The notes under the pieces: model-generated
The model's database searches: none
Told to the model about the DNA's origin: nothing
Seen by the model: only the letters and a program-made list of their open reading frames with translations
Program-made: the position numbers and the translations under genes
IMG/VR virus record: IMGVR_UViG_3300029922_000003
Direction: 5' to 3' (one strand)
Source of the DNA: a virus
DNA: 64,000 nt
Part shown: positions 22,648-58,203 of the stretch, one piece after another
Numbering within the stretch: the stretch's first letter is position 1
Layout of the letters: every line of letters begins with the position of its first letter

Positions 22648-24123
22648 CTAGAATTCCTTATGAAGTCTCGCCCTAATCTCCGTCAGAGATTGGTCAACAA
22701 ATAGTTGCCCATCCTCGTAAACCCGATTATAGGCACAGTTCTTGACTTCATCCCAGGATACCTGGTCTTTCTGATAGAACTTACCATTCTCATCCTGGTA
22801 GACAGCGATCAACCCCTTGGCTGACTTCTTGAGTTTTGCGGTGTCCGTCTTGGGGTCCTTGAAGATTTCCCTTGGCTCTCCATTAACCTCCACATACGTA
22901 CTCTTGACAGCCCAACCATCTGTGTCACGACTTACGCCATAAACCAGATAGTAGGATCCAATCCCGTACACGATATTGGTACTTGCGAACCCCTTAGCCT
23001 TCAATCCTTCGCAGATTGCCAACAAGACCTTGCGGTTAACTCCATCACCAAGAATCGTTCCAACATGTGGATCCAACTCCTTAAACCCAAGATCATTGAC
23101 CGTTCCACCAAAGATATCCCAAAGGAGTTCTATGGTTCCCTTATTCTCGGGCGAGCCCTCTGGAGCATCTGGGTCTCCAACGATGATCTTGACGTTGTCT
23201 CCACTATCAGGTCGGAAAACCAACTTACCATCACGTTTCAATATGGTTTCTTTTAGCCGGATAGCAAAGTCAGAAAGAGTCTTCCAGTAATCAGTAGTGT
23301 CACTGATGTAGCTGAAAATCCCCGTAGGGTAAACATCCTCAATGAGATGTCTCAGAGCCTCGAACTCGTCTCCTCCATAAGAGCAAATCACGGCGTGCTC
23401 CGAAGCAGCTACCGAAACAGTGATCAACTCCTTGTCGGAATCTCCGTTGTAATATTCCTCAATGAAATCAATCCCAGGAACCGTGTCGGATCCAGCAAAA
23501 GATGTCAAGAATCCGGCATCAGCCATGACCGCAGCTTCGTGACCGAAGCAGCCCCTGTAGCTAAAGTTGTGCCCCTGGAACTTTACAAACCCAATATTTC
23601 CAACTGTTTCCATTGCATACTTCTCGAGCACCTTCCTGATCTCCAAGGCAGTGGTCGCCGTTGTTGCAATGGGCCATGTGGATGTAGAAAGGATTGTTTC
23701 GATGTACGCCTGGAACCATCCAAACCTAGTGTCGGTTGTCCAATACACAAATGGTGCTACACCATATGGGACAATAGACCCCTCAGGGAGACTATAGAAT
23801 GCCAATGGGATGTGCCCCAAGTCATGCAAGGCCTCGATGTGTTCTTGACCGACACTATTTGGACCAAGGTAGTTATTAATCCTCCTTGTGTACCGGGCGA
23901 CCACCTCTTCCTTAGGCTTAGCGAAGAAGTTGGTATTCCAAAGGCCAATAAGGATCTCCTTCAGGAAGTATTGTAGTCCAACGGCCACAACTCCATCCGG
24001 TACGACCTCTCTGTATGACTTTCGAGGCGTCATATTACCAAAGGACAGGCTAAGTCCTGGGACTAATTGCTGCCTGTGTCCGGTTTTATAACCATCAATC
24101 AGCGTTTCTGGACTCTTTTTCAT
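22648..24123 (-). CDS. nadV: Nicotinamide phosphoribosyltransferase-like protein (NAMPT/NadV; possibly Namat of NARP1)
   Basis: DGYKTGH, HNFSYRG, AASEHAV, SYISDT.D, VFRPDSGD, GDG, GIGSY, KDPKTD..KKSAKG. Confidence 0.92.
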   Translation of the reverse strand: MKKSPETLIDGYKTGHRQQLVPGLSLSFGNMTPRKSYREVVPDGVVAVGLQYFLKEILIGLWNTNFFAKPKEEVVARYTRRINNYLGPNSVGQEHIEALHDLGHIPLAFYSLPEGSIVPYGVAPFVYWTTDTRFGWFQAYIETILSTSTWPIATTATTALEIRKVLEKYAMETVGNIGFVKFQGHNFSYRGCFGHEAAVMADAGFLTSFAGSDTVPGIDFIEEYYNGDSDKELITVSVAASEHAVICSYGGDEFEALRHLIEDVYPTGIFSYISDTTDYWKTLSDFAIRLKETILKRDGKLVFRPDSGDNVKIIVGDPDAPEGSPENKGTIELLWDIFGGTVNDLGFKELDPHVGTILGDGVNRKVLLAICEGLKAKGFASTNIVYGIGSYYLVYGVSRDTDGWAVKSTYVEVNGEPREIFKDPKTDTAKLKKSAKGLIAVYQDENGKFYQKDQVSWDEVKNCAYNRVYEDGQLFVDQSLTEIRARLHKEF

Positions 24124-24565
24124 ATTTTTGTTGTTGTAGTTTCGATACCTTAATTGATTGGACAAGCGAGTTTAGTGTGTCGTACGCTTGTCCGAGTCCT
24201 GCTCTGTCATCTAGGAAGATATTGTAATATATCTTACCTCCAGCGTTGATCTCACCACCCTTGGTGAAGTCAACTACATCCTCGTTTATCCCATCGATCT
24301 TGATCCCTATTTCCTCGCAGTGCTTCCTAATGAAAGCATGCCGGCTCTTGGGACTAGACGAGAATATAACTACCTTGAAACCAAGTTCGTTACAGTCTTT
24401 GATCAAACTAATGACGTTGTCAAAGATGTACCCCTTGTTGTGAAAGTCGTAGATTGTATTGTCAAAATCCACTGCGACGACTAAGGACTCGTGTCTCCTG
24501 TAGTCGTTTAACAATCGATTATAACACTCCACTGCCGACAAGAATGGGTCGGTTATTCTACGCAC
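24095..24565 (-). CDS. HAD-superfamily hydrolase-like protein
   Basis: Motif I VAVDFDNTI, motif II FSS, GKIY, motif IV FLDDRAG. Confidence 0.75.
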   Translation of the reverse strand: MRRITDPFLSAVECYNRLLNDYRRHESLVVAVDFDNTIYDFHNKGYIFDNVISLIKDCNELGFKVVIFSSSPKSRHAFIRKHCEEIGIKIDGINEDVVDFTKGGEINAGGKIYYNIFLDDRAGLGQAYDTLNSLVQSIKVSKLQQQKYEKESRNAD

Positions 24566-32891: not shown

Positions 32892-33412
32892 ACAATTGCG
32901 CCAGGCAAGTGTCTGTCTACAAGGGTATTAATTACAGACCACTCGCCGGCGTTAGCCCCTGACCCCATTTTGTAGGGAAGATAGACAAAACCTCCTGCTT
33001 CAGTCAATGCGGCTAAATAAGCATTACCTGCTAATTGAGCCAAGCATAGTCTAAGTGCTGAGTACTCCAGTACTCGCTGCTGACCCCTGTCAGACATGCA
33101 GAACAGCATGGCGACAAACAAAGAGCTGGTGACTGGCACGAGCAATGTTGTCCCAAGTAGATCTGCTGGGAATGGATGGCCCTTGAGGTAGGACTTGTAA
33201 AGTTCAACTACCTCTGGGTACTTTTGTGTGATTTGAAACGAAAATCCACCATCTAGATTTCCATTAACACTAACGGCATGAAGGATCATGCCTGAACTAA
33301 CTTTGATTATGTCTTGTGTTACTTGCTTCACTTGCGATGGTACGGGGAGGACTCTTGGTGCTAAATATCTGTAGCGAGTTCCAAGAGTTCCTGTCCGTAC
33401 CCCGACTGACAT
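32855..33412 (-). CDS. Degenerate macrodomain protein
   Basis: DII, ILHAVSVNGNLDGGFS.QI..KYPEV, LLG, YSAL..CL, LPYKMGSGANAGEW pattern. Confidence 0.6.
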   Translation of the reverse strand: MSVGVRTGTLGTRYRYLAPRVLPVPSQVKQVTQDIIKVSSGMILHAVSVNGNLDGGFSFQITQKYPEVVELYKSYLKGHPFPADLLGTTLLVPVTSSLFVAMLFCMSDRGQQRVLEYSALRLCLAQLAGNAYLAALTEAGGFVYLPYKMGSGANAGEWSVINTLVDRHLPGAIVCIMPTNSSPKR

Positions 33413-33741
33413 ACCGCATCAATTGGTCTAATCCCTTTGGATAGCCCTTTGGCGATTGCATCGAAGTTCGTCTTTTTGCGAAGTCGTTCGTATATAATAC
33501 GATAGACTTCATTCCAGCGCAGGTTCAAGGTTCTAGCTTTCGATCTAACAACTTTATTGATCCTTGCGCGGACAATTTCAACTTCATCATTCAAGACCTT
33601 TGATGAAGCCCTTTTTACTGGAAATGGGGCTGAAGATGCGTTCAATTCCTCGAACGCACTTACCATGTTCTTTGATGCAGTTCTGAACTGCACCACAGCT
33701 TCTGTAAAATTAAATACTAACTGATTTTTATTATTCTTCAT
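33361..33741 (-). CDS. Hypothetical protein (possible antirepressor C-terminal-like DNA-binding domain)
   Basis: RARINKVVR...W..VY...Y..L pattern; weak. Confidence 0.5.
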   Translation of the reverse strand: MKNNKNQLVFNFTEAVVQFRTASKNMVSAFEELNASSAPFPVKRASSKVLNDEVEIVRARINKVVRSKARTLNLRWNEVYRIIYERLRKKTNFDAIAKGLSKGIRPIDAVCQSGYGQELLELATDI

Positions 33742-33801
33742 TTTATGAATACTTTGGGGTTTACTAAAAAATGTATTAACTTAGCGTTGCGCCGCAACAA
33801 G

Positions 33802-34263
33802 TTAAGAAACGTACTGAGCCACGCTTTTTAAGATTCTACTAGAAAACTTAGGCGGCTTAGTGGGATGTAACGCCAATCCCAGGCGGTGAGGGGTCTTTTC
33901 GTACAATCCCTTTGCAATACTTGGACTTATGGAAATGCCAGTGGGGCAGGATACAACCAAATCTGCTTCAGAATTCCAAAAACCACGGTTTAAGAAATTT
34001 GCAATCTGCTGTGCAGTACTATCAGAGAATAGAGTAGCACCAGGATAATCAAAAGGGTCTCCATCAAAACACTCTATGCGCAGAATGTCCTGTAGAGGAA
34101 TCTTATATGACTTTGTAAGGACACGCTCGTCAATCATTGCCGACCTAGCGCTCATCTCATTTGAAGACACCAATACTACCCAGGGGGTTCTCCCCTGGGC
34201 AGCAGCGGCGTCCCGAAGGACTGCATTGAGTCCCATGTAGCAGGATGCTCGGACTGTTTGCAT
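33802..34263 (-). CDS. Tyrosine-phosphatase-like protein with broken P-loop
   Basis: F.D, AQQIANF, LVVSCPTGISISPSIA (CX5R Arg replaced by Ile). Confidence 0.55.
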   Translation of the reverse strand: MQTVRASCYMGLNAVLRDAAAAQGRTPWVVLVSSNEMSARSAMIDERVLTKSYKIPLQDILRIECFDGDPFDYPGATLFSDSTAQQIANFLNRGFWNSEADLVVSCPTGISISPSIAKGLYEKTPHRLGLALHPTKPPKFSSRILKSVAQYVS

Positions 34264-34271
34264 CTTTGTGA

Positions 34272-35630
34272 TTACAGACTGAAGTCTTCGTCAAAAGTGA
34301 AGTCATTAAATGCCTCAATCAACGCCTCACGGAATTCATCCGAGATGATGCTGGTTGGGATAACGAAGAATTTCTTCGTCAAATCAAGAACCGAAGGGTT
34401 CGACTGATTGTTGGGGAATACAAAGTAATCCCCAGTCGCCCTAATTCCCCAGGTATTTTCCTGGAAGTAAGCAGTAACCGGAATTACATCATCCTCACTA
34501 TTAACTATGTCTGCGATATTTTTCTCCTCATCATCGACCCACTCATCCTGATCGTTATATTGTCCGTCAGGGTACCTATCAGATCTTGGTTTCTTACCAA
34601 TACTGATGGTGATCCCTGTCTTGAATCCAGGAGTCGTCATGTCACTGGTGGTGCCTGTGGAGATTGTGACAGTCTTATCTTCAATAATAGCTTTTCTCAT
34701 TGATTCGAGCACTTCCTCAAATGTTTCAGAATCTCGAACAAGGAAGTCTTTGACATCTAGTTCGAGATTGTGCTCTTTAATGGCCTTGAAGAAAGCAGCA
34801 TCTTTGACGGATGATGTCTCTTCAAGGTGATAGCTGTAGTTTCCCATATCTTTCTTTTCGGTCTTGTATGGTCGGAACAACCCGACAACTAGACACCCTG
34901 GATACTTGGCTTGCAAAGAGTCAACTTCGACAAAGAAGTCATCTTCATTGACATCAACTACATCCTGGGCTGGGACAACTGCCCCAACGAGTGGATTCAG
35001 CTCTGTGGCTGGAACAACTTGTGCGGCAAGTGGATTTGCCGGAATAACTTGTGCTGCTAGCGGATTTGGATTCACTGGTGTTGGTGTTGGAGTTGGTGTT
35101 GGAGTTGGTGTTGGGGTTGGTGCTTGGGTTACCACCCTGTTTTCCTGCCAGTCCAATGACCTTGCGGGGACAATAGGCCCGTTGATGTTTACTTCCTGGA
35201 GGATAGTAGTGGCTTTGGGGACCACCTTCTTTGCGGCCCAATCAAACTCGACTGGCTGGACTGCACCAACGAGACCACTAACAACCGACTCAATTTCCTC
35301 TGAATCAACATATGGTGAAACGAAGTCAGGTGCAACAGTAGAGAAGTCGTACGAACTACTCGCAACAATAGACCCAATCACTGCGTACAGGTTGTTGTTC
35401 CGCAAGATCGACTCAGTCACATTGATGTGCTGTGCCAATAGCCCACTCTCAATAGAAGCGAGTGCAACTGCATCAATACCAGGAAATGCAGCAAGGAACG
35501 TTTTTGTTTTTACATCTTCGATTTCGAGTGGAGTCTGGATCGCAGGGAACTCTCGACCAAGCGAGATATATGCAGACCTTGCCTCTCTAACAAGCTTATC
35601 GATGATAAAAATTTGTATAGATTTTAACAT
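34272..35630 (-). CDS. Hypothetical acidic protein with (PT)n / NPLAAQV linker
   Basis: 452 aa; directly downstream of the JAB gene. Confidence 0.75.
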   Translation of the reverse strand: MLKSIQIFIIDKLVREARSAYISLGREFPAIQTPLEIEDVKTKTFLAAFPGIDAVALASIESGLLAQHINVTESILRNNNLYAVIGSIVASSSYDFSTVAPDFVSPYVDSEEIESVVSGLVGAVQPVEFDWAAKKVVPKATTILQEVNINGPIVPARSLDWQENRVVTQAPTPTPTPTPTPTPTPVNPNPLAAQVIPANPLAAQVVPATELNPLVGAVVPAQDVVDVNEDDFFVEVDSLQAKYPGCLVVGLFRPYKTEKKDMGNYSYHLEETSSVKDAAFFKAIKEHNLELDVKDFLVRDSETFEEVLESMRKAIIEDKTVTISTGTTSDMTTPGFKTGITISIGKKPRSDRYPDGQYNDQDEWVDDEEKNIADIVNSEDDVIPVTAYFQENTWGIRATGDYFVFPNNQSNPSVLDLTKKFFVIPTSIISDEFREALIEAFNDFTFDEDFSL

Positions 35631-35744
35631 TTGTTTTTTGTTTTTGTTTAGTTTTTAAAAATCGAAGTAAGGACCTACCATCTCTGGTAGGTCCATACAA
35701 CAAGACCGCCCTGATATATGTTATATCAAGATTTCTAAACTATA

Positions 35745-36956
35745 TTATTCTCCGGCATACCCCATCATGATATCTTCCATGGAGGCTCCATTTTCTATCC
35801 CACTAGCAATCCTCCGGCCCTTAATCCATTCCTCAAGATTCAAGATCATGCATGCCTCGGATATATTGTATACCGAGAAGATATTGGTCTGCATATCAAT
35901 GATGACATTCAGCTCAGAGCTAGTAAGATTCCCATCTGCTTTAGATAGAATGTTCTTGAGATTGAGTTGAGTTATCTTGTGCCTTGCCGCGACCTTGTTT
36001 ACCTGTGGTTCTATCAGAGACTGATTAACCGGCATCAGCGCCGACGAAGCAGCTGTCGAACGCCCCGCCCTTTCTCGCTTTTTTTTTGAACTGTTTGACT
36101 TACCCCCACGGTTCCAATAGTCGGATCCTTGATGGTGAGCCCCGGTACCGTGATGGGGCAACCCCATGTACGGATGACGTTGAGCATATGGCACAATCAC
36201 CCTAGGCGTGAGGGCCTTGGGGATGCGGTTCTCAACCCAGCGCTTTACCAGCTCTTGATCAACCAACTCCTCACTGGGAGTATTGATCAAGAAATCAAAG
36301 GCAAAGGTCCTGATCTCTGGTGGAGCATTTTCTGATACGAAACAGTTAGGAACCTCAACGAAGTCGCGAAGATCCGGCTTGGATTGATACACCCTTGCCT
36401 TCACAGCCGTCTCCTTGCCTTCACCATCAAACTCAAGAGATCCAGGCAGAATGACAGTAAACCGAGCATGAAGATCAATCTTCGGCCCAGACACCGTTCC
36501 CATGGTGATATGGATACCAGCTGAGTTATCTTCGTCGGTCTTGTCCGTCCCGCTCTGAAACGCTGTAGCGTTGCAATGACTATGGGCAGTTCCCCACTGA
36601 TGGAAACCACCGGCCAGCATCTCGTTCATGTCAGTCTGGAACCTCTCATGGTCTGGCAACTCCTTGGTCGTCATCCCAGTGTTCATCTCCTGAGGGAAGG
36701 CGTGAGCCTTCCACATCCGAGTTGTTTTGTTGTAAAACAAACGAACCTGAGCTTCGGATTTTTCAGTATCATTTATCTTCTTGAAGAAGAACGCAATGGT
36801 GCGCCACAGAGACAGGGACATCTTCCCAGTCTTGAGTCGTAGCAATGGCTCGCTCTTCAGCTCGGTAAACTCAACAGGAGTATACACAGATATTTCTTCC
36901 GTCAGGCTCCTCAAGTAAAGAGGCTTATTGTTGTGGATATACAGTCTTTCGGACAT
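35745..36956 (-). CDS. Prokaryotic JAB/MPN metalloprotease (Ubl peptidase) with C-terminal extension
   Basis: SEAQVRLFY (Glu), WGTAHSHCNATAFQSGTDKTDE (HxH..S..D), GIHITMG. Confidence 0.85.
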   Translation of the reverse strand: MSERLYIHNNKPLYLRSLTEEISVYTPVEFTELKSEPLLRLKTGKMSLSLWRTIAFFFKKINDTEKSEAQVRLFYNKTTRMWKAHAFPQEMNTGMTTKELPDHERFQTDMNEMLAGGFHQWGTAHSHCNATAFQSGTDKTDEDNSAGIHITMGTVSGPKIDLHARFTVILPGSLEFDGEGKETAVKARVYQSKPDLRDFVEVPNCFVSENAPPEIRTFAFDFLINTPSEELVDQELVKRWVENRIPKALTPRVIVPYAQRHPYMGLPHHGTGAHHQGSDYWNRGGKSNSSKKKRERAGRSTAASSALMPVNQSLIEPQVNKVAARHKITQLNLKNILSKADGNLTSSELNVIIDMQTNIFSVYNISEACMILNLEEWIKGRRIASGIENGASMEDIMMGYAGE

Positions 36957-36963
36957 AGTATTG

Positions 36964-38577
36964 TTATCTTTTGATTATGAGTGACTTTTTATCCAAGACA
37001 AAATCTACTCTCTGAATAGACTCTTCTTGGGGCGACGATGGATCTTCTTCCTCAAACATGCTTCGAGAAAATATTTCCTTTCTTTGTATAAATGCCTCAA
37101 TCAATCCCTTGGATATGTTTGAGGGTTGATTGGCGATAGCCGAAGGAACTTCCACCATTATGGCGGTTTTGATCTTGGCTTTTGATGTCCTCTTGATTGT
37201 GGACACAAAAGTCCCAGAGCACTCAACTTTGACTTTCTTAAATAGACCCTTTGCTGTTTTGGGGTCCATCTGAAGATGAGACAATGTTCTATCGTAGTTG
37301 TCACTACTTGGACGGTAGCAATGAAGTCCAAACCCCCCTAGTATACTTGATATGTTACCTGAACCAAGTTCGACAAACTGGTTATCCCAGTAAAGTGGAA
37401 CCTGATCCTCAGCAGCACGAATAGCTGCTTGCCATATAGACATCATTGTTGAACCACTGTGCAGTGATACACTAATTGATGGGGTTTTGGACACCAGCCT
37501 GTCGGCAAACTCAATGACGTTTTTCATCGTCTTGTGTTCACTTGACTGCAATAGGTTGGTCTTTACGGGACCCAGGATCTCAGAGCCGAACTCGTTACAG
37601 AGCATTTTCATGATCTGTCCTCGTACAGTTCCGTAGGTTGAATCCTTGACACCAACCGACTTGATGCTCTTTTGAGCAACTCGAATAGTGTCACTCTCCA
37701 TCATTTTGGATACTGTTTTATGTACCTCGATCTCCTCACCCGATGTTTGAAACACAACTGCCCTCTCGTTGGATCCACCACTTTTTGTTGCTGCAACCTC
37801 AACAAGACTGAAGTCCATAACACCATCTTTGGTCTTAGATGTCTTAACGCTGCAGGTAGTCCATTTTTGATTGTTCCAAAACCACACCACTGAACCAATA
37901 GGTAGAATAAATAATCCCAAGAGACTTTTATTAACCGTATGTTTTGAGTCGATAAAGATATTACTTATATCGAAATTGGCCATGTTCACGTTGTCCTCAA
38001 TTGTCATAACAGTAGGAGTTGAGGTATCTCCGTCAGCAAGACGAATAAACTCAACCTGAATATTGTTATTGGTCGGGTCAAACAGTGAAGACCGTCCACC
38101 ACCACGAGAGCTCCTGGTACGACGACCAACGCTCAAGAACTTGCCCTTGGGAAGGCTGTAGTTAGACCCGCAAACCGTCTTGCATGCCTTTGTTACCTCA
38201 AATGGAATGAATGGAATATCCGCCATGTATGACAGAATCTTTCCATCAATTACTGGATTGAAGTACCCCATAGGGGTCATGTGACTGAATATCTTTTCGT
38301 ACGCTTCAGGTACGATAGGATATCCACATGCCGTCATGTCAAATGGGACGCAATCTGCACCAGGGTGTCCTTCTAGTAAGAGCGCCCCCGCAAAATTACC
38401 CACAAATATATTTCTCTGTGGATTGAGACCCCATCTAACCAACTGGGCCCTACGATCAGACAACATCGAAGACCGATACGATGTATTTTTGAAGTAGTGA
38501 TATGGAGCTATTGGGAAGAACGGCTTATCCACTTGCTCTTCCGATGCTGGTATTGATTGTTCTGGTGTTTGTTCCAT
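36964..38577 (-). CDS. Hypothetical protein inside the Ubl operon
   Basis: 537 aa; abuts E1 (0-nt gap) and JAB (7-nt gap). Confidence 0.8.
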   Translation of the reverse strand: MEQTPEQSIPASEEQVDKPFFPIAPYHYFKNTSYRSSMLSDRRAQLVRWGLNPQRNIFVGNFAGALLLEGHPGADCVPFDMTACGYPIVPEAYEKIFSHMTPMGYFNPVIDGKILSYMADIPFIPFEVTKACKTVCGSNYSLPKGKFLSVGRRTRSSRGGGRSSLFDPTNNNIQVEFIRLADGDTSTPTVMTIEDNVNMANFDISNIFIDSKHTVNKSLLGLFILPIGSVVWFWNNQKWTTCSVKTSKTKDGVMDFSLVEVAATKSGGSNERAVVFQTSGEEIEVHKTVSKMMESDTIRVAQKSIKSVGVKDSTYGTVRGQIMKMLCNEFGSEILGPVKTNLLQSSEHKTMKNVIEFADRLVSKTPSISVSLHSGSTMMSIWQAAIRAAEDQVPLYWDNQFVELGSGNISSILGGFGLHCYRPSSDNYDRTLSHLQMDPKTAKGLFKKVKVECSGTFVSTIKRTSKAKIKTAIMVEVPSAIANQPSNISKGLIEAFIQRKEIFSRSMFEEEDPSSPQEESIQRVDFVLDKKSLIIKR

Positions 38578-39291
38578 TTATTCCTTTAGGTCTCCAACCA
38601 TCTTTGTCGCATAGCGCATGTCGGTGTTGCTTATCTCAACCGGCCAGAAGTCGTATGACTGCTCGGGGTCAAGTTCTTTGTACTCAGTGGTCCAGAAGTT
38701 CCACAAGAGTAGTGTGTGTGCTCCGGCAAAGTAATTTGCCAGTGATGTTTGTGGAATCTCTTCCAGGTGCTCTTCGGTATTGCACCCAGCCGCATGGACA
38801 GGTGAACCGCGCTCAGTAGTAAGTATCTCAGGATATCGCACTCGCGGATCCAGAGTAGTCCCCTCCCACTTGTGGTCGTAATAATACGAGCTGGCAGATA
38901 TCCGACCATTGGCTCCAATGAAGCACTTTGCCTCATGACGATCAACAATTGATAGGATGTCTTTTCGAGCCGGATGATTGTCGACAAACGCAATGACAAC
39001 AGAACCATCCTTAATGGGGAATGATCCAGTCACATATTCGGAATGTGTCTTGAGATTGATGTTGGGGTGACTTTCACCAAGAACCGACATCAAGGCCTCT
39101 GCCTTGTTCATTCCCGTCAATCCGCTGGCGAAGAGCTGACGCTCATAATTCCTGTCCTCGATTGTATCGCCATCAACTAGGGTTACTGTTGACCCCTTAA
39201 ACTCCTTGGAGTAATTGAGGGTCTTGAGGAATGCTGGCAAGAAATAGCTGCATACCCCTCCACATCCGATGACGTAGTAGTTCTGTTTCAT
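38578..39291 (-). CDS. E1-like ThiF/MoeB-family activating enzyme
   Basis: VIGCGGVCS, LVDGDTIEDRNYERQLF, NKAEAL, VDNHPAR, candidate catalytic Cys in AGCNT, QTSLAN. Confidence 0.9.
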   Translation of the reverse strand: MKQNYYVIGCGGVCSYFLPAFLKTLNYSKEFKGSTVTLVDGDTIEDRNYERQLFASGLTGMNKAEALMSVLGESHPNINLKTHSEYVTGSFPIKDGSVVIAFVDNHPARKDILSIVDRHEAKCFIGANGRISASSYYYDHKWEGTTLDPRVRYPEILTTERGSPVHAAGCNTEEHLEEIPQTSLANYFAGAHTLLLWNFWTTEYKELDPEQSYDFWPVEISNTDMRYATKMVGDLKE

Positions 39292-39391
39292 ATTTTGATT
39301 AATTGTTTTTTGGTTGATTTTTGTTTATCTAAGAAATGGTCAGTGCCGACTTTTCGGCACTGACCCATTTAACTTTCAGTTAGTGCGTATA

Positions 39392-40498
39392 CTATTCGTT
39401 TATTGCGCGTACGCGCCTACGAACTGTATTCCGAACTGCCTGCTGCACATCTGGAACATCAGCTACTGGAGCTGGAGTATCACCCACTGCCAGATTGTTA
39501 TCAGCAGTAATGAACAGGTTGTGATCAGTAGGGGTAAACACTATGTGGTCATCTCCCTGATTAACTCCAAAGAATTGATTACCAACAGCTGGTGTATGCC
39601 ACAATCCAGCGGCACCTGCACCATCAGTAACCTGAACCACCGTAGTACCAACAGCTGGTGGTGTAACAATCTGATCCACAGCCTCAGGTGTACGAATTTC
39701 ACCAAATCCTGTAATCGCACCTTCGCCAACAGCTGGAGTTTCATTGGCCATGGTAGCGCGAGGAACTTCTCCCGCCTCTGCTGCCTCTGCTGCCGTGGGA
39801 GCGGGAGGAGGGGTAGTAGGAGCTGCCGTAGGAAGATTCTCAAAGTCAGCTGGATCCATATCGACGAATCCATCTGTAACCTGAGGAGCACCACGATTAG
39901 GTGCAGGTGTTGGCTCAGCTATATCCGCCCAATTTACTTCAGCCCCAATTCCACCAATAATTGGTGCAATGGGAACTTGTTGACGTGGAGTTGTAGGCTG
40001 ATAGGCAGCTGGGGCAACAACTGGAACAACTGCTGGAGTAGCCTGCTGCGCCACTGGAGTATTGAATGCATCAGCTGGGAAAACTCCCGTAAGGGGTTGT
40101 TCCTCCACTCGAACCTCTGGTAGGGCTTGTGGTACAGGAGCCTGTTGTGGCTCCTGCTGTCGAGGCATCTCTGCAATGAATCGCAAAGCCCAAGGAGAAT
40201 CTTCTCCTCTGGAAACCTCTGCTTCCAGCTTTTTAACAACTGCATCGAATATTTGGCACTGGAATTGACCAATCTCAAAGGACTCGGATAGCTCCTTAGA
40301 TATAAAACTTCGGTCCCGCCTATCCGCTTTTTGTTCTGCAGTAAGTGGGAATATTTTCAGCTCCCCTCCATTTTTTTTGAGATAACTAAAGTCGTCAAGA
40401 AGAGACAACATCCTGGACCGACGAGTAGCTCCGAAAATAGTTTCGGAACTGACAGGCAATCCAGGCAACTCCAACATTTCTTGGAATAAGGATTTCAT
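39392..40498 (-). CDS. Hypothetical protein with P/A/T/Q-rich linker inside the Ubl operon
   Basis: 368 aa between E2 and E1. Confidence 0.75.
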   Translation of the reverse strand: MKSLFQEMLELPGLPVSSETIFGATRRSRMLSLLDDFSYLKKNGGELKIFPLTAEQKADRRDRSFISKELSESFEIGQFQCQIFDAVVKKLEAEVSRGEDSPWALRFIAEMPRQQEPQQAPVPQALPEVRVEEQPLTGVFPADAFNTPVAQQATPAVVPVVAPAAYQPTTPRQQVPIAPIIGGIGAEVNWADIAEPTPAPNRGAPQVTDGFVDMDPADFENLPTAAPTTPPPAPTAAEAAEAGEVPRATMANETPAVGEGAITGFGEIRTPEAVDQIVTPPAVGTTVVQVTDGAGAAGLWHTPAVGNQFFGVNQGDDHIVFTPTDHNLFITADNNLAVGDTPAPVADVPDVQQAVRNTVRRRVRAINE

Positions 40499-40507
40499 GT
40501 ATGTGTA

Positions 40508-41317
40508 TTACCAACCAACTGTGGCGTATGGAAGGCCATCAAGATAGTAGTTTCCAACTTTGACGGTGAGGATTGTTTTGGCGGACTTGATGGGAGCAAC
40601 CTGCTTCTTTTCTCTGTTCCACCCAATTAGCTGGTCTGCCAACTCGATGCGATTTGCACCTTGAGTGATCAGATCCGAATTCATGCGGCTCTCAAAGAAT
40701 GACTTGAGGGTACGCTGGATTTCTTCATCCGAGGTTTTGACAGGATTGGTGTACTTATCAAAGGCACTACCCATGCAAACCCTGGCGTCAGCGAAGACGT
40801 TTGGGATACACGGCAAGAAGTTGCCCATAATTAACCCCGCTTTCACATCAAAAAGTTGGAAGCAGAAATATGCATTGATTTCGTAATTGCCTGACCCCCC
40901 TGGAGTAAGAGAGATAGCAACCAAGAACCGAACCTTGCAATCCGAAGTACTGAGAGATTCCGATGAGCAGTAAATCCTATCCTGGAATGCGTCAGTTGCT
41001 GAGCGAGTAAAATCAGCGATCAATCGAGGGGTTCCACTGTGTTCCACAATCTGGAAGGAGGTATCAAAGACAATCCCAGGAATATATCCCCAGTAGACAG
41101 CTTCGTTCTTCTTCGTAATGGACAGGTGGAATGGCACCCTTTTGTACTGTACGCCTGATGATCCAACTGATTCTGCAACCTCAAAAGTCGTATGCTTTTT
41201 GATGGTTGAGAACGACTGATTTGAGACTCGTTCGATGATCTCACTAACATTTTGTAGAGCGAATGGCTCCATACGGTATGCGACACCGTCTTCGTTAAGG
41301 ATAATAAGAGGTTTCAT
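40508..41317 (-). CDS. Prokaryotic E2 family D-like (PRTRC protein B-like) conjugating enzyme
   Basis: LPCIPNVFADARVCMG (PN...xC.G catalytic Cys loop) and FFESRMNSDL. Confidence 0.75.
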   Translation of the reverse strand: MKPLIILNEDGVAYRMEPFALQNVSEIIERVSNQSFSTIKKHTTFEVAESVGSSGVQYKRVPFHLSITKKNEAVYWGYIPGIVFDTSFQIVEHSGTPRLIADFTRSATDAFQDRIYCSSESLSTSDCKVRFLVAISLTPGGSGNYEINAYFCFQLFDVKAGLIMGNFLPCIPNVFADARVCMGSAFDKYTNPVKTSDEEIQRTLKSFFESRMNSDLITQGANRIELADQLIGWNREKKQVAPIKSAKTILTVKVGNYYLDGLPYATVGW

Positions 41318-41364
41318 GTGTTTTGAAGAACTTGTGGGATATAAAAAAAATAAATGTCTAAGAT

Positions 41365-41398
41365 ATCCCCCAATCTCGGCGCAACGAGATTGGGGGAT
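41365..41398 (-). terminator. 14-bp hairpin between Ubl and E2 (terminator or mRNA stabiliser)
   Basis: ATCCCCCAATCTCG / CGAGATTGGGGGAT perfect arms; T-run about 15 nt downstream. Confidence 0.55.
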
Positions 41399-41415
41399 AA
41401 AATTAGCCTACGAGA

Positions 41416-41661
41416 CTAGGCGGAAGCCTTCTCGTGTGCCTTGTGCTGAACGTTAACGACATCGCCGTCAGAGATGACAGTATTGTCGCTTGCGCGGGAG
41501 CCGTTGAGGACGAACTCCACGTTCTCGTTGCTGTAGCCGAGGGCTGCAGAAACGTTGCGGTTGGCACGAATGCAGCTCAGAGTGGACCCCACAGGGAGAC
41601 CATTGATTGGGAGCTGGTTGCCTCCGAAGGAGACAGTGATACGAATGTTACCGTTTGCCAT
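41416..41661 (-). CDS. Ubiquitin-like (beta-grasp) protein
   Basis: 81 aa; ITVSFG strand, GSTL..I....NV..ALG helix, FVLNG, ISDGDVVNV; ends HEKASA; first gene of the E2/E1/JAB run. Confidence 0.8.
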   Translation of the reverse strand: MANGNIRITVSFGGNQLPINGLPVGSTLSCIRANRNVSAALGYSNENVEFVLNGSRASDNTVISDGDVVNVQHKAHEKASA

Positions 41662-41806
41662 AATGTGTATATTATGTTTGCTACCTGGACGCCAGGAGCC
41701 AGCGTTAGTTTTTAATCAAGAACCACAACTAGGCGCTTTCTATAGAAAGGCGCTTAGCCGGCATAACCCCGTAAAAGGTTACACCGGCTGTAGCGCATCT
41801 CCGTAG

Positions 41807-42274
41807 TCAACGCACAACAACACTCTGTATAGGATGGTTCGTGGTCTTGATGACCAGGGACGCTTGCTTGGTGAGGATCTTTTTAGGAAACTCATCCAAG
41901 TGCCTTTTAGGACTGAGGGTGTTGAAAGTCTCGCCCAGATTCTGGATACGAGAGTTTCTACGCCTTGTGTTCTGATTAAAAATACTGGCCTTCGCTAGCA
42001 AATGAGGAATTATCTGGTTATGATCTGAGGTGGCTTCAATTTTGACAGTGAACGCTACAATCGCGTCGGTATCAATCACGTCAATGGTCTCCTGAGAGCC
42101 AAAAAGGATTGTTACATCCCTGGTCTCTACAGCAGGCTCTGCCTCGTCCTGATCATTTGCAAGATTCGCAATATAATTACGAACCTCTGCTAAAATTCTT
42201 TCTTTCTCTGCTCCGTCCTGGACTGAAGCAGTCAAGACTGTATCTAACTCCTCTACACTAATCTTCTTTGCCAT
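41807..42274 (-). CDS. Hypothetical protein
   Basis: 155-aa ORF upstream of Ubl. Confidence 0.7.
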   Translation of the reverse strand: MAKKISVEELDTVLTASVQDGAEKERILAEVRNYIANLANDQDEAEPAVETRDVTILFGSQETIDVIDTDAIVAFTVKIEATSDHNQIIPHLLAKASIFNQNTRRRNSRIQNLGETFNTLSPKRHLDEFPKKILTKQASLVIKTTNHPIQSVVVR

Positions 42275-42299
42275 ACTGAACTTTCTACTAAACTAACAT

Positions 42300-42697
42300 G
42301 GGCAATATCTGAGCGGCCTTTGCCGCTTATTTTGTAGTAATAGTTTTGTGCACTGAATGGTAACAGGATGATCCGGCCCCTGCCTCTGTCCTGAAGAAAC
42401 CTGCAGCTCGCAAAGGGACTCGGTCACTTACTATTTGTGGATGGTTTCACCACAGCCTTGCGGCACTACAAAAAGGCAATTTGGTAGGGTGGGACGTTAC
42501 TTCCCACGATTATCTGCGTTTCGGTATACTCTCATTTCTAACCGGACTGGTACTCCAGTATTTCCTTGTAGAGTATTTTAAGGTCTAAGCTTTATCAGTG
42601 CCTTGCTAAATACCTGATTCAAAGTCCTAAATTTGGGGCCCTAGGATTATCTTTGAAACTAACCTTTATGTTCTACGATTTCACACCGCCTACCAAA
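42300..42697 (-). ncRNA. Unclassified structured intergenic RNA candidate
   Basis: About 430 bp without an ORF; long-range helix 42480-42488/42689-42697 plus several hairpins with GNRA-like loops. Confidence 0.5.
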
Positions 42698-42702
42698 ATC
42701 AA

Positions 42703-43449
42703 CTAAATGTTTTTGAAGACCGATAATGGCTGCCAATAGTCGTCACCAGCACTAACCTCATATTTGTCCGAACGGATGAGACTTAGTACATCGTGTCTAA
42801 CATTATTAAATAACAACCCCTCGGGACGGCCTGAAGTTAAATCAAGGACAATTTCTGTTACAAGCCACGCAGTAGACTTGTCTCGCTTGAGTCGAATCCA
42901 AGTCATTGTTGGAGTGAACCAATCATCAGTTTTTGAACTCAGTGGGTTCTTGTACTTACGCTTGGTGCGGTAAGTGGTTAAACCGTTCTTGCCAGCAAGG
43001 GCACTGCCTAGGTGACGCGTTCTCCAAACACCGGAGTCGTAAAATTCAAGATCGCCAATGAAGCATTGTGAGACCTTACCTAGCTCGATTGCAATCTGTT
43101 CATTCTTTGTCAATAAACGATATCCCGCTGCAGTATTGATCTGCTCGGGAGAGAGGCGACCTGGGTTTAGCCAAGTGTCTTTCGGTTCGATGTCAGCGAG
43201 TGCTGGATACACCACACGGCGAACCGGCTCGATTTGATAGGTCTGCTCCTGTCCCGAAATCGGGATTCTAAAGAAGTTCTGACGAACATGTTCGTCTGTT
43301 ACTTCTGTGCATGGGAAGTCGAACCAAGTATTATCCTGAGAGGATCTTGGGCGGAACTGAACTCCATGCTGTCTGCTTGCTGATACTGCTGAGATGACTT
43401 TGAATTTGTCCTCAATGCTGTTTTGTGGGTCGAGTACTAAGTACGACAT
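42703..43449 (-). CDS. Hypothetical protein
   Basis: 248-aa ORF, AAGGA upstream. Confidence 0.7.
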   Translation of the reverse strand: MSYLVLDPQNSIEDKFKVISAVSASRQHGVQFRPRSSQDNTWFDFPCTEVTDEHVRQNFFRIPISGQEQTYQIEPVRRVVYPALADIEPKDTWLNPGRLSPEQINTAAGYRLLTKNEQIAIELGKVSQCFIGDLEFYDSGVWRTRHLGSALAGKNGLTTYRTKRKYKNPLSSKTDDWFTPTMTWIRLKRDKSTAWLVTEIVLDLTSGRPEGLLFNNVRHDVLSLIRSDKYEVSAGDDYWQPLSVFKNI

Positions 43450-44197
43450 ATACTAATTCCTTTTTGAGGGGCTGCTGATATTATCTGTAGTAGAATTTTT
43501 GTGAGTTTGGACTTCACATAATTCTACATTGTTACTTTTTTTGGGCGGGAAAGGATTGCTCCTCGCGGCCACAGACGGGTTTTCAACATTTAATTCGGCA
43601 ATACCGATACTAACCGAAACACATCTTCCAAAAAAGGATCTTGAGTAGTGAGAATAGGCGCAACAGGGTAAGCGTCGGTATCAGCGATGCGCAATGCAAG
43701 AAGCTTGGCCAACACTATCCTGCTTGTTTTCTGCCTTCAAGGCGTGGCTTGTCTGAAAGCCAATCATACCAAAGCTGATAGGGTCATGACAGTTTGCCAG
43801 GCCAAACTCAACCAACAAGCGGTATTTTTCACTACCCAAGAAGTTCTACAAAAATGTTTTCTGGACAATCGTGCTTTTACGCCAAATGACTGGTCTCGTA
43901 GTATAACACTCATATACCTACTTGTAATCAATAGGTTATAACTAGATTTCATTACAAGAGGAGGTAGCAACCTCGCAGCATACCCTATTCAAATCACCTA
44001 GGGAGAGTGCCCTAGGTAACATATGCCTTTATTTAATGAATAAGATAAGTCTTCAGATATATTCCCTAACGTATACTACATTTATCTCCTTTTTATCGGT
44101 GTATTTGATGTAGACTCATAGGTATCCTAGACCCCCGACTACGGTCAACTCTCTATGGATGGCTGCTTCTAAGCCCACCTCCTTGTCCAGAAAATAC

Positions 44198-44271
44198 GAG
44201 CGTGAGCGGGACTCGAACCCACATTCCCGAGCCCCATTTGGCCAGGTTCCTGCCAATTGAAAGATCACGCA
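44198..44271 (-). tRNA. Aberrant tRNA-like element (Pro-TGG-like, expanded anticodon loop)
   Basis: Acceptor GCGTGA/TCACGC, D-arm TTTC-AATTGGCA-GGAA, T-arm GTGGG-TTCGAGT-CCCGC; 11-nt anticodon loop containing TGG; no encoded CCA. Confidence 0.55.
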
Positions 44272-44372
44272 TAAAATCAAAATAGTCAGAACGGGAATGC
44301 ACTCCCTTTTCAAGTCATCGAGTATAAGGATTGCGCTTTGGATTGTCGGGTAGAGGTGCTTCTGTAAGTATA

Positions 44373-44515
44373 CAGCAGATTTTCACTTAGTCCCTCCGCT
44401 CTTTGGGCTCTCGATCCCGTAGGCGCTTTTAAATGACAATCGTGGAGGGAGCTAGGGACGTTACTCCTAGCACTCTATGTCAAATGTGCTACCAGACGTT
44501 GTTACTGACCTGCTG
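44373..44515 (-). ncRNA. Unclassified multi-stem RNA candidate
   Basis: CAGCAG/CTGCTG closing helix, TCCCTCC/GGAGGGA helix, hairpin sharing AGTAACGTCCC with 42491-42501. Confidence 0.45.
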
Positions 44516-44516
44516 A

Positions 44517-44786
44517 CTAGTATCGCTTATCCCCACGCCTGTACTCCACTGGAGGACAGATTTTTGGGGGATTAAAAAATGCTTGGTCCTCATCTCTAGT
44601 CTGACACTTGATGTTGTCCTGACTAAAGATGGGCTTGCCATCCTTGTCAATTCCTGGGAAGTGTCTGAGGCACTTGGTCGCCTCCTCTCTCAATTCCTTG
44701 AGTGTTCTTTTCCTCCCAGTAAAGAAGCTCTTCAAAAACTTCTCAGTAGCAGCTATTGCTGAATCCTGTTCATATCGAAGACTCAT
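44517..44786 (-). CDS. Hypothetical protein
   Basis: 89 aa; 4-nt overlap with upstream gene. Confidence 0.6.
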   Translation of the reverse strand: MSLRYEQDSAIAATEKFLKSFFTGRKRTLKELREEATKCLRHFPGIDKDGKPIFSQDNIKCQTRDEDQAFFNPPKICPPVEYRRGDKRY

Positions 44787-45562
44787 TGAAATAAATCGTT
44801 GTCGAACTCCTCAATGTAGATATACGAAGGAGATCGGGGTTTACCTGACACTATCCTCCAGAGTCCACCTCTGTGCTGGAGAGACCAACTCTTCTTGTGG
44901 GCATCTTGACCAATAAAGGTTCTTACAAAGTCTAGGCCAACGTGGAGGAAATTTCCTCTAGCAGCCCTGAATTGAATTTGCCTGGATCCAGCAACTGAAT
45001 CTCTTCCAACCCAAAGCCTCTTGGCATCTGGAAGGGGAACTACCCCTAGCCGTACCATTCCAAGCTCTGAGAAGAGAGAGAACCCAATGTTCCACATCTC
45101 TACATTCCATTCAGCTTTGTATGCGCCCTCAGACAACCTCTGCGAGCAGTATATTGCCAGTCTCTCAAATTGATCTTTGGATAGAGTAGCGACAACTCCT
45201 AGAAGTTCGTCGTTCTCCATTGCCATAACCTTCTGGGTACCCTCTTGGTCTGTGAGGGTTTCTAGGAAGTTGTTGTAGAGCCACTCCTTAGTTTCCTTAA
45301 CTGGAAGGATCCCTTCGTTTCTGTAGGAGTTGACGAATGGCAGGTTGGGATGCCAGAACGCTTTTGTATCGAACTGACAGGAGGAAGGGACAGAGATCTC
45401 TTTTCCTGAAACAATCAGGGAGGTTAAGACTGGCCTAGGGGAGTTATCAAAGAGATCTTCTTTCTCAGGAAGCTCTGAATCCTCCTCTGACTTTATGACT
45501 GGAAACTGAGACTCATCTGTCTTTTTGTTTTTTTCTGTCACGAACTTTTTGGATGAAGACAT
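44783..45562 (-). CDS. Hypothetical protein
   Basis: 259-aa ORF. Confidence 0.7.
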   Translation of the reverse strand: MSSSKKFVTEKNKKTDESQFPVIKSEEDSELPEKEDLFDNSPRPVLTSLIVSGKEISVPSSCQFDTKAFWHPNLPFVNSYRNEGILPVKETKEWLYNNFLETLTDQEGTQKVMAMENDELLGVVATLSKDQFERLAIYCSQRLSEGAYKAEWNVEMWNIGFSLFSELGMVRLGVVPLPDAKRLWVGRDSVAGSRQIQFRAARGNFLHVGLDFVRTFIGQDAHKKSWSLQHRGGLWRIVSGKPRSPSYIYIEEFDNDLFQ

Positions 45563-58110: not shown

Positions 58111-58203
58111 ACTTCTGTGTGTGTTTGTGTGCAGACGCAACGAGCCCCTTGCGCGGGGCTGTGGCGATCTACGATAGCCTACCAATGGGTAGGCGCAGTA
58201 CTA

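Follow-up and report, generated by a model that had tools for sequence, protein, structure and literature searches.

To our knowledge, host anti-phage systems, namely Bil, CBASS Cap2/Cap3 and Bub, are the only bacterial settings in which conjugation of ubiquitin-like (Ubl) proteins has been demonstrated by experiment. The locus described here, from the virus record IMGVR_UViG_3300029922_000003 of IMG/VR, raises the question of whether a phage may own such a pathway itself. In a stretch of 64,000 nucleotides (hereafter the window), a sequence-only reading had proposed an operon for a Ubl tag, an E2, an E1 and a JAB peptidase, interleaved with three large genes, X, Y and Z. The phage indeed encodes a beta-grasp tag, an E1 whose ATP/Mg site is intact, an E2-like protein carrying a PN-x7-Cys motif and a JAMM peptidase in which the metal site is complete; motifs, profiles or folds back each of the four roles. 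We consider it probable, while short of certain, that these genes form a putative phage-owned Ubl conjugation pathway, distantly related to the PRTRC or class-6d cassettes and lacking their ParB. What is new here is an uncharacterised variant near PRTRC with an Ala-ended tag and two conserved partners, X and Y.

Cassette architecture and distribution

All seven ORFs of the proposed set were recovered at their expected places on the minus strand (Table 1), in the order Ubl-E2-X-E1-Y-JAB and then Z.

Table 1. Features of the cassette and its surroundings, in minus-strand order
Feature	Position	Strand	Size	Basis or description
Gene upstream of Ubl	41807..42274	-	155 aa	Syntenic in all large-phage relatives
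Ubl, beta-grasp protein	41416..41661	-	81 aa	AF2 model and Foldseek, conservation, codon pattern
Hairpin, G+C-rich	41367..41396	-	12 bp	Directly 3' of Ubl stop; read from sequence; conserved in L007
E2-like carrier enzyme	40508..41317	-	269 aa	Prok-E2_D, motif, AF2 model
X	39392..40498	-	368 aa	N-domain of about 100 aa and 278-residue proline/alanine-rich tail without lysine
Hairpin in 100-nt X-E1 gap	39338..39365	-	12 bp	Terminator scan
E1, minimal ThiF-type adenylation domain	38578..39291	-	237 aa	ThiF profile and motifs
Y	36964..38577	-	537 aa	Lysine-rich (7.3%); abuts E1 stop; 7 nt from JAB start
JAB/JAMM metallopeptidase	35745..36956	-	403 aa	N-terminal extension; uncharacterised C-terminal half
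Z	34272..35630	-	452 aa	(TP)n linker; adjacent to JAB

The host replicon is an uncultured phage of ~187 kb, and the sequence of the window recurs in metagenome contigs, the longest of which has 186,740 bp. Its genes include those for DnaE, DnaB, primase, UvsX and NAMPT, and PHROG matches in the window comprise a DnaE-type polymerase, helicases, a primase, a UvsX-like recombinase and NAMPT. Together with the occurrence of relatives on contigs from IMG/VR and on others that encode a T7-like portal, these matches bear out the supposed phage origin of the cassette, which lies within the replication/early module.

A survey of large phages found the core Ubl-E2-X-E1-Y-JAB again in four more lineages, and a compact form, Ubl-E2-~110aa-E1-JAB, was common in T7-like phages of ~42 kb. 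Across this deep divergence, spanning the five large-phage lineages and the compact form, identities were 47-64% for E1, 30-58% for E2 and 40-59% for JAB. Reference collections returned very little: a blastn search with the operon matched none of 50,697 GenBank phages, tblastn with E1 gave a single weak one in Salmonella phage Arash, and tblastn of JAB against plasmids gave none. PHROGs and PADLOC offered nothing useful for the operon genes beyond generic E1 and JAB matches. It should be added that Rfam had no match at E<=0.1 over positions 33000-45000, and that ARAGORN found no tRNA within the window.

The protein encoded upstream of Ubl showed 33-68% identity to its counterparts in the relatives L007, L014, L015 and L020, and no family (Pfam, NCBIfam) or ESM Atlas match. 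Since the downstream neighbours of the cassette are syntenic too, the synteny of this gene may reflect only the phage backbone.

The tag and its enzymes

The AF2 model of the 81-aa product (pLDDT 79.6) is a beta-grasp fold, as the sequence-only reading had expected, and yielded 264 Foldseek matches in the PDB at E<=1e-3, the best being SUMO, ubiquitin and Caldiarchaeum Ub with TM of about 0.7. Pfam profiles gave only ThiS at 0.071. In comparison with L007, Ubl was the best-conserved gene of the cassette: the two copies are 80% identical with identical tails, the neighbouring genes being 32-68% identical, and their substitutions are distributed 13/8/33 over codon positions 1/2/3. Judging from this conservation above the neighbours and from the codon-position bias, the ORF is real. 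The same two patterns favour the minus-strand Ubl over an antisense ORF of 93 aa on the plus strand (41434-41715), which was rejected as a true gene. Gene callers had picked precisely this antisense ORF, not Ubl, on near-identical contigs; as such programs often overlook the tag gene or assign it to the opposite strand, the cassettes are under-counted.

The Ubl of this phage ends in ...VQHKAHEKASA and contains only two lysines, K74 and K78, both within the tail. Its family comprises about 95 clusters with an invariant K-A at or near the C-terminus; small-phage tails read ...QASSKA in 87 of 90 clusters, and large-phage tails ...AHEKA followed by A, SA or AA. Every member seen, except one, has Ala as its last residue. 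The Gly or Gly-Gly typical for adenylation is thus absent from the C-terminus (...AHEKASA), and a terminal Ala is uncommon among beta-grasp Ubls. Furthermore, the core is free of lysine in 68 of the 89 clusters.

For E1, the expected ThiF profile was matched well (Pfam ThiF 1.4e-10, 41.2 bits against a gathering cut-off of 28.1). The best NCBIfam match was PRTRC_ThiF at 1.1e-10, far under its cut-off, and weak matches to PADLOC E1-E2 models reached 3.7e-6 at best. Nucleotide and Mg-site motifs (GxGG, DGD, RQ, K63 and DNHPAR) are invariant, in line with the nucleotide loop noticed earlier; the cysteine proposed alongside it ('AGCNT', C170) is conserved only in the large-phage lineage. Small-phage E1 proteins have a cysteine in the same loop but three columns earlier.

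The catalytic-position cysteine remarked on in E2 (RVCMG) is C181 and is invariant across the family. It belongs to a site IPN-x7-C181-x-G, with a motif N213-x-D215-L216 downstream. Among 43 diverse sequences N173, C181 and G183 are invariant and P172 is nearly so; the His of 'HPN' is replaced by Ile or Leu, and PN stands eight residues before the catalytic Cys, as in the UBC superfamily. The suggested Prok-E2_D (PF14460) profile did match at E=0.0019, but its 18.4 bits stayed below the gathering cut-off of 25; 11 of the 43 relatives matched it at E<=0.01 (best 8.2e-5) and no other family recurred. With the AF2 model (pLDDT 92), Foldseek found nothing significant in the PDB, and in BFVD only uncharacterised proteins of uncultured phages. 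The best rows of VIA-align were mostly UBC/UEV/RWD proteins (Z 4-5.2, rmsd about 4 A, 100-127 residues aligned), and Cap2 (7to3) was among the structural matches. The E2 assignment is a tentative one: its profile matches are sub-threshold, its motif is a single short one and its structural matches reach only Z 4-5.2.

A similar picture was obtained for JAB, where the Prok-JAB profile matched at 1.8e-4 but with 21.8 bits against a cut-off of 25, and PRTRC_A at 6.4e-5. The E/HxHx7SxxD site, already read as intact, is invariant in six sequences from three lineages (E68, H125, H127, S135 and D138). JABs of all lineages match PRTRC_A only, and weakly. In the N-terminal extension W51 is invariant, and the adjoining Arg is Asn in some small-phage members.

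Partner proteins X and Y and the neighbouring Z

Of the three interleaved genes, X and Y proved to be conserved and Z did not. The N-domain of X is conserved in L007, L014 and L015, and its tail is lysine-free in three homologues, proteins of the window averaging 6.4% Lys. A lysine-free Ubl core and a lysine-free X tail are together consistent with lysine-directed conjugation. At the position of X, the relatives L015, L020 and a third contig encode a protein of just 96-115 aa. No profile similarity was found between the N-domain of X and the ~109-aa protein of the small phages, so that their equivalence is positional only. X had no family match in Pfam, NCBIfam, PHROGs or PADLOC and, like Y, shows no recognisable fold; with its lysine-free arm on a conserved N-domain it is a candidate adaptor.

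Y is conserved between E1 and JAB, with 41% identity in L007 and about 26% in L015 and L020, and a fifth contig has a 562-aa gene at this position. Its invariant residues include C242 and H286. Searches of Pfam, NCBIfam, PHROGs, PADLOC, PDB profiles and the ESM Atlas gave no match for Y, the best PDB profile being CD4 at E 0.18, which is chance level. X and Y are two lineage-specific partners of the tag and its three enzymes within the conserved operon.

Z resembles only its counterpart in L007, the closest relative (55% across the portion present), and the proteins at its position in L015 and L020 (299-326 aa) showed no BLAST similarity to it. No family match was obtained in Pfam, NCBIfam, PHROGs or PADLOC. 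A gap of 114 nt with a promoter-like site separates Z from JAB. As its conservation ends at the closest relative, Z was rejected as a conserved member of the system, and by this comparison it probably lies outside it.

Relation to known systems and proposed function

That sets of E1, E2, JAB and Ubl exist in bacteria (PRTRC, Bil, CBASS Cap2/Cap3), as stated in the sequence-only reading, agrees with the cited papers, and its mention of PRTRC was apt: within NCBIfam this is the sole described family touched by E1, E2 and JAB alike. PRTRC denotes the ParB-related, ThiF-related cassette (TIGR03734-03742), which Iyer, Burroughs and Aravind 2006 (PMC1779556) listed as operon class 6d and whose E2 is Pfam Prok-E2_D. 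In NCBIfam the phage JAB, E2 and E1 have PRTRC_A, PRTRC_B and PRTRC_ThiF, respectively, as their best or sole match, although the scores are far below the model cut-offs (ThiF, 41.3 bits against 144.75; protein A, the JAB, 22.6 against 101.8; protein B, the E2, 12.1 against 131.45), and the relatives score similarly, none at cut-off. On a Photobacterium plasmid, a true PRTRC_B matched Prok-E2_D (2e-24), which ties this E2 profile to PRTRC; its PN...C motif aligns with that of the phage E2 family, and LPN...C.G is common to both. Phage and PRTRC cassettes further share a separate small Ubl, a PN-x7-C E2 without His at 'HPN', a single-domain ThiF E1, a JAB extended at its N-terminus and one additional small protein lying between cassette members. 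In class 6d the JAB has an N-terminal alpha+beta domain with conserved Arg and Trp (PMC1779556).

The differences are nevertheless considerable. The phage Ubl ends in Ala and not in the conserved Gly of PRTRC protein C, and the protein at the Ubl position of the Photobacterium plasmid ends in ...VKTNG; the phage Ubl did not match TIGR03738 (PRTRC protein C), and its family showed no profile similarity to this plasmid protein. Class 6d E2s have a downstream 'absolutely conserved' His, whereas no His occurs in the invariant or nearly invariant columns of the phage E2s. A Y of 525-576 aa is inserted between E1 and JAB in the phage cassettes, unlike in PRTRC, and the carriers are lytic-looking phages instead of plasmids or ICEs. 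No ParB was found among the scanned operon and flanking genes or among the called genes of the relatives.

Bil (BilABCD) occurs as types I and II, type II being class 6C (Chambers et al., PMC10557695), and likewise unites Ubl, E2, a JAB deubiquitinase (DUB) and E1 in a single operon. Its DUB pre-processes the Ubl and its target is lysine (PMC10557695), which offers a template for the reactions that we propose. However, the Bil E1 is a multidomain IAD-AAD-CYS protein (PMC10557695) and the phage E1 a single domain; the Bil order is Ubl-E2-DUB-E1 (PMC10557695), and Bil serves host defence with a Gly-ended Ubl, while that of the phage ends in Ala. With type II CBASS the cassette shares a bacterial E1/E2 and a JAB, and Cap2/Cap3 conjugate through a C-terminal Gly or Ala (PMC10097602). 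The substrates of Cap2 end in Gly or Ala (PMC10097602), and we found no other precedent with experimental support for an Ala terminus. Unlike the separate phage genes, Cap2 is an E2-E1 fusion, and it acts on a CD-NTase instead of a beta-grasp protein; no CBASS-type cyclase or effector was found at the cassette, PADLOC giving no cyclase match. Bub comprises diverged bacterial E1, E2 and Ubl with non-canonical chemistry (Ye et al. 2024, PMC11601596). Exceptions to the Gly-Gly and thioester rules therefore exist, of which the phage Ala terminus would be another, yet Bub uses serine oxyesters and a serine protease (PMC11601596), whereas the phage E2 Cys and JAMM site are invariant.

The earlier statement that no characterised phage system has this architecture holds only in part: the literature searched contains no characterised phage system, but annotations of PRTRC cassettes, none with a mechanism, exist for prophages of Burkholderia gladioli, as a ParB/ThiF partitioning cassette (PMC13366799), and of Phocaeicola (bioRxiv 10.64898/2026.10.01.756045). 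A role in partitioning or maintenance, the usual annotation of PRTRC on plasmids, ICEs and prophages, would agree with PRTRC being the nearest named family. We hold it very improbable here, as ParB is missing from the scanned genes, the carriers resemble lytic phages with replication modules and no PRTRC model was matched at cut-off.

A sulfur-carrier or otherwise non-conjugating system, in which E1 would activate the small protein to a thiocarboxylate for a thio-nucleoside or cofactor, also appears improbable, if less so. Such carriers include ThiS, MoaD, TtuB, CysO and QbsE, and JAMM peptidases mature some of these. Two members of the Ubl family were named 'sulfur carrier protein ThiS' by JGI, and the scores of E1 against ThiF/MoeB models nearly equal that against PRTRC_ThiF. 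JAMM maturation of sulfur carriers is, moreover, established (Iyer 2006, PMC1779556). On the other hand, the scanned operon genes and flanking ORFs yielded no match to a rhodanese, a cysteine desulfurase or an enzyme of sulfur insertion, the E2-like protein with its invariant Asn and Cys is always present, the Ubl terminus is Ala and not Gly-Gly, and this reading leaves the lysine depletion unexplained.

Two further readings place the cassette in conflict between phage and bacterium or between phages, and we regard both as unlikely. The one ranked higher takes JAB as the key activity, stripping or mimicking host Ubl marks (Bil or CD-NTase conjugates), or the Ubl as a decoy saturating host enzymes. 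Host Ubl defences do exist, phage DUB domains have already been proposed as anti-Bil, and the early/replication region fits counter-defence. Stripping, however, needs the peptidase alone, yet the motifs of E1, the catalytic residues of E2 and the tail of Ubl are invariant as well; in addition, the phage enzymes are not close to those of Bil or Cap2/Cap3, and lysine avoidance in Ubl and X points to the phage's own conjugation. The one placed just behind it sees the cassette as directed at rival phages or mobile elements, a Bil-like phage-carried defence that would tag the virion proteins of such competitors. The inferred chemistry would be the same, and the characterised bacterial systems Bil and CBASS Cap2/Cap3 work in phage-bacterium conflict. 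Contrary to a mobile accessory defence, the cassette keeps one position in the replication module and passes down together with the phage backbone across deep divergence in two lineages, 42-kb genomes included, and PADLOC defence models gave only the weak generic matches.

Under the favoured reading of a phage-owned conjugation pathway, the 81-aa product would be a pro-Ubl from which JAB removes the variable 1-2 small residues past the invariant ...AHEKA, exposing a terminal Ala; the large-phage tails match such a precursor pattern, and we infer the trimming only from this tail variation. Alternatively, the encoded terminal Ala would be used directly, and trimming may be unnecessary since all family members seen but one are Ala-ended as encoded. 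E1 would then adenylate the C-terminal carboxylate, and Ubl would pass to a thioester on Cys181 of E2, possibly by way of the E1 loop Cys, and on to lysine residues in at least one target, Asn173 playing the part that it has in canonical E2s. JAB could also undo the mark. X and Y (with Cys242 and His286) are candidate adaptors or E3-like factors, or Y may be the substrate. The position in the replication/early module makes host take-over, regulation of replication proteins or counter-defence likelier functions than virion assembly. A fuller version, to which we give somewhat less than an even chance, is that phages run their own Ubl conjugation in infection with a C-terminal-Ala tag, that X with its lysine-free arm and Y as a new E3 or dedicated substrate select host or phage lysines, and that this viral writer and eraser exists in at least two tailed-phage lineages.

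If true, a conserved virus-owned writer/eraser set would mean that phages, too, use Ubl conjugation chemistry, with a 237-aa E1, a 269-aa E2 and an 81-aa tag as a tractable minimal system and X and Y as two conserved candidate specificity factors. The rules of Ubl activation would widen because the tail is invariant and Ala-ended, and the long-uncharacterised PRTRC/6d class would gain a functional model. As for expression, the hairpin at 41367..41396, absent from the terminator-scan list because its T-run is not adjacent, may cause partial termination or serve for processing and thereby set the ratio of Ubl to the enzymes.

Gene order and the carrier phage

Analysis of the minus-strand operon points, with moderate confidence, to a phage-owned pathway for conjugation and deconjugation of a ubiquitin-like (Ubl) tag ending in Ala; the core of the sequence-only reading, a phage-borne set for writing and erasing such a tag, was supported by motifs, profiles and folds. 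All seven co-directional ORFs proposed in the interval 34272-41661 were present and occupied it on the minus strand. The start of Y directly abuts the E1 stop, 7 nt lie between the end of Y and JAB, and the E2-like gene and X are spaced by 9 nt. The gaps of about 100 nt after Ubl and after X each contain a 12-bp hairpin, and a promoter-like site lies inside the 114-nt gap between JAB and Z.

Genes of the Ubl operon in the window
Gene	Coordinates	Strand	Product length
Ubl	41416-41661	-	81 aa
E2-like	40508-41317	-	269 aa
X	39392-40498	-	368 aa
E1	38578-39291	-	237 aa
Y	36964-38577	-	537 aa
JAB	35745-36956	-	403 aa
Z	34272-35630	-	452 aa

The core order Ubl-E2-X-E1-Y-JAB was conserved in four further contigs of large phages, namely L007, L015, L020 (a 174-kb contig) and a contig of 67.8 kb, with identities of 47-64% for E1, 30-58% for E2, 40-59% for JAB and 25-41% for Y. 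The Ubl cluster of L007 was also present on a 190,646-bp contig. The sequence-only reading had counted Z as the last member; this part did not hold, and Z is probably outside the system, because its position in L015 and L020 is filled by proteins without BLAST similarity to it. Synteny also extends to the 155-aa gene on the upstream side and to genes on the downstream side, and alone it therefore cannot assign membership.

A compact version, comprising Ubl (74-77 aa), an E2-like protein (about 300 aa), a protein of about 110 aa, E1, JAB and a small VRR-NUC-like protein, is encoded next to a polymerase of family A on many 37-44-kb contigs, including one with a T7-type portal. The protein of about 110 aa showed zero profile similarity to X.

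The carrier of the operon is a large, uncultured and deeply novel phage: at least 24 metagenome contigs, up to 186,740 bp in length, carry the identical E2, and the DnaE-type polymerase shares <30% identity with that of any GenBank phage. Apart from this polymerase, PHROGs assigned two helicases, a primase, a UvsX-like recombinase and a nicotinamide phosphoribosyltransferase to the window, in which zero tRNA genes were found. The polymerase match was strong (phrog_405, 1e-174) and belongs to a 930-aa ORF (54480-57272, minus strand), preceded and overlapped by a 310-aa ORF (57253-58185). The nicotinamide phosphoribosyltransferase is full-length (22648-24165, minus strand; phrog_448, 3e-168), and the phage therefore carries NAD+ salvage.

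Predicted activating, carrier and peptidase enzymes

The ThiF assignment of E1 was borne out by a score above the Pfam cut-off and by invariance of the nucleotide loop, DGD, RQ, Lys63 and DNHPAR over three lineages. Its proposed catalytic Cys (C170, in AGCNT) fared less uniformly, being kept in the large-phage lineage only, while E1 of the small-phage lineage (T7-like phages of about 42 kb) has a Cys in the same loop, three columns before. Because the column of the candidate loop Cys differs between the two phage lineages, a thioester step at E1 is given as possible only. For JAB, profile matches were weak (Prok-JAB, 1.8e-4; PRTRC_A, 6.4e-5), and the claimed intact E/HxH/S/D set was found as invariant Glu68, His125, His127, Ser135 and Asp138 (E...HxHx7SxxD).

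The E2-like protein matched Prok-E2_D just at E 0.0019. Profile search over 1.84 billion representative proteins placed it in a small family of 44 clusters; Prok-E2_D was matched by 11 of 43 members and no second family recurred. Asn173, Cys181, Gly183, Asn213 and Leu216 were invariant in 43/43, and Pro172, Phe153 and Asp215 nearly so. The PN-x7-C spacing is that of the canonical E2 active site, HPN...Cys. Ile or Leu takes the His position of HPN, and class 6d E2s were likewise described with this His replaced (Iyer et al., PMC1779556).

The AF2 model of the E2-like protein was confident (pLDDT 92). Foldseek returned zero significant matches in the PDB, and the best rows of an exhaustive VIA-align search were mostly UBC/UEV/RWD, at Z of 4-5.2 only, the top matches including Fts, UbcH7, UBE2E1, Ubc13, Tsg101 and Cap2; these matches suggest, but do not prove, that the UBC fold is present in an elaborated form. 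Among viral structures, in BFVD, significant matches were limited to A0A6J5NI06 (E 3.7e-7) and A0A7R7G2H5 (E 1.2e-4), uncharacterised proteins of uncultured Caudovirales and probably further members of phage E2-like families.

The Ubl tag and its partner genes

Sequence profiles were silent on Ubl (ThiS just 0.071); its AF2 model is a beta-grasp, the fold whose lack would have spoken against the sequence-only reading, with hundreds of ubiquitin and SUMO structural matches. No other gene of the operon is conserved as well as Ubl: between the window and L007 it shares 80% identity, its neighbours 32-68%, and its substitutions number 13, 8 and 33 at codon positions 1, 2 and 3, respectively. The Ubl ORF is a real gene. 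In near-identical metagenome contigs an antisense 93-aa ORF (41434-41715, plus strand) was annotated instead of the 81-aa Ubl, and in L019 the gene was absent from automatic calls; such cassettes are therefore under-detected in protein databases.

The small-protein profile search gave 90 clusters, 87 of them with the invariant C-terminus ...ITLExQASSKA. In the large-phage branch an invariant ...AHEKA is extended by A in four clusters, by SA in the window, L007 and P0140, and by AA in the relative L014. Aligned over their full length, the two branches have the small-phage terminal K-A over K78-A79 of the window protein. Two readings are compatible with these tails. In one, the mature end would be ...KA, the variable one or two small residues being a pro-peptide cut off by JAB; pro-peptide removal by DUBs applies to many Ubls and was shown for Bil (PMC10557695). 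Alternatively, the encoded terminal Ala, present in nearly all members, would be used directly. Under both readings of the tail the activated residue is predicted to be Ala, not Gly. The sole experimental precedent found is type II CBASS, where Cap2 substrates have C-terminal Gly or Ala; a CD-NTase with Ala at its end undergoes conjugation, and changing Gly to Ala does not abolish thioester formation (PMC10097602).

The spacer from the upstream 155-aa gene to Ubl (41716-41806, minus strand; 1820-1965 in L007) is conserved between both phages. It opens with a long hairpin (GCGCTACAGCCGG...CCGGCTAAGCGC), continues into a similar A/T-rich leader, had no Rfam match, and may combine a terminator with the promoter or leader of a separate, abundant Ubl transcript.

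The conserved part of X is its N-terminal ~100 residues; the protein has only 96-115 aa in three of the four relatives with the same gene order, and only the subclade of the window has the long tail. X is without lysine beyond residue 90 (window), 83 (L007) or 77 (L014), the mean for window proteins being 6.4%, and the Ubl core is lysine-free in 68 of 89 clusters, yet has 3-6 arginines. Such avoidance is suggestive of lysine-directed conjugation, with tag and partner protein shielded from self-modification, and suggestive only because the X tails, mutually unalignable in these three phages, are also compositionally biased. Y is lysine-rich (7.3%), has 48 invariant positions, Cys242 and His286 among them, and could be an E3-like factor or the substrate.

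Relation to PRTRC, Bil and CBASS

The literature searched neither described nor characterised a phage-encoded E1-E2-JAB-Ubl system, as the sequence-only reading had held; its claim needs qualifying in that PRTRC cassettes were already annotated in two prophages, of B. gladioli (as a 'partitioning cassette'; PMC13366799) and Phocaeicola (bioRxiv 10.64898/2026.10.01.756045). PRTRC is the sole named family touched by all three enzymes, every score being far below cut-off. In a Photobacterium plasmid, whose PRTRC cassette also has genes for ParB and for a small protein with the C-terminus ...VKTNG, true PRTRC_B matches Prok-E2_D (2e-24). The E2 of PRTRC is therefore Prok-E2_D; combined with the class 6d description and species list of Iyer et al. 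(PMC1779556), this assigns PRTRC to class 6d. Chambers et al. (PMC10557695) put type II Bil in class 6C, and Bil differs from the system here in its multidomain E1.

When the phage E2 family was compared with plasmid PRTRC_B by hhalign, the LPN...C.G motif alone aligned. Unlike PRTRC, the window system has an Ala terminus on its tag and an additional 537-aa gene, with no ParB among the window genes scanned, and it lacks the downstream His of class 6d. By these comparisons we regard it as a distant phage branch of the PRTRC kind, filed outside PRTRC itself.

It should be added that the window E1 matches ThiF genes on plasmids of 110-220 kb from Clostridium, Thermoanaerobacterium, Lysinibacillus and Bacillus (H17-H30), some of which may be phage-plasmids. 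On one plasmid locus, L017 (NC_017998.1), the neighbour of ThiF is a protein matching Prok-E2_D (3.3e-8), and the cassette carries no PRTRC annotation.
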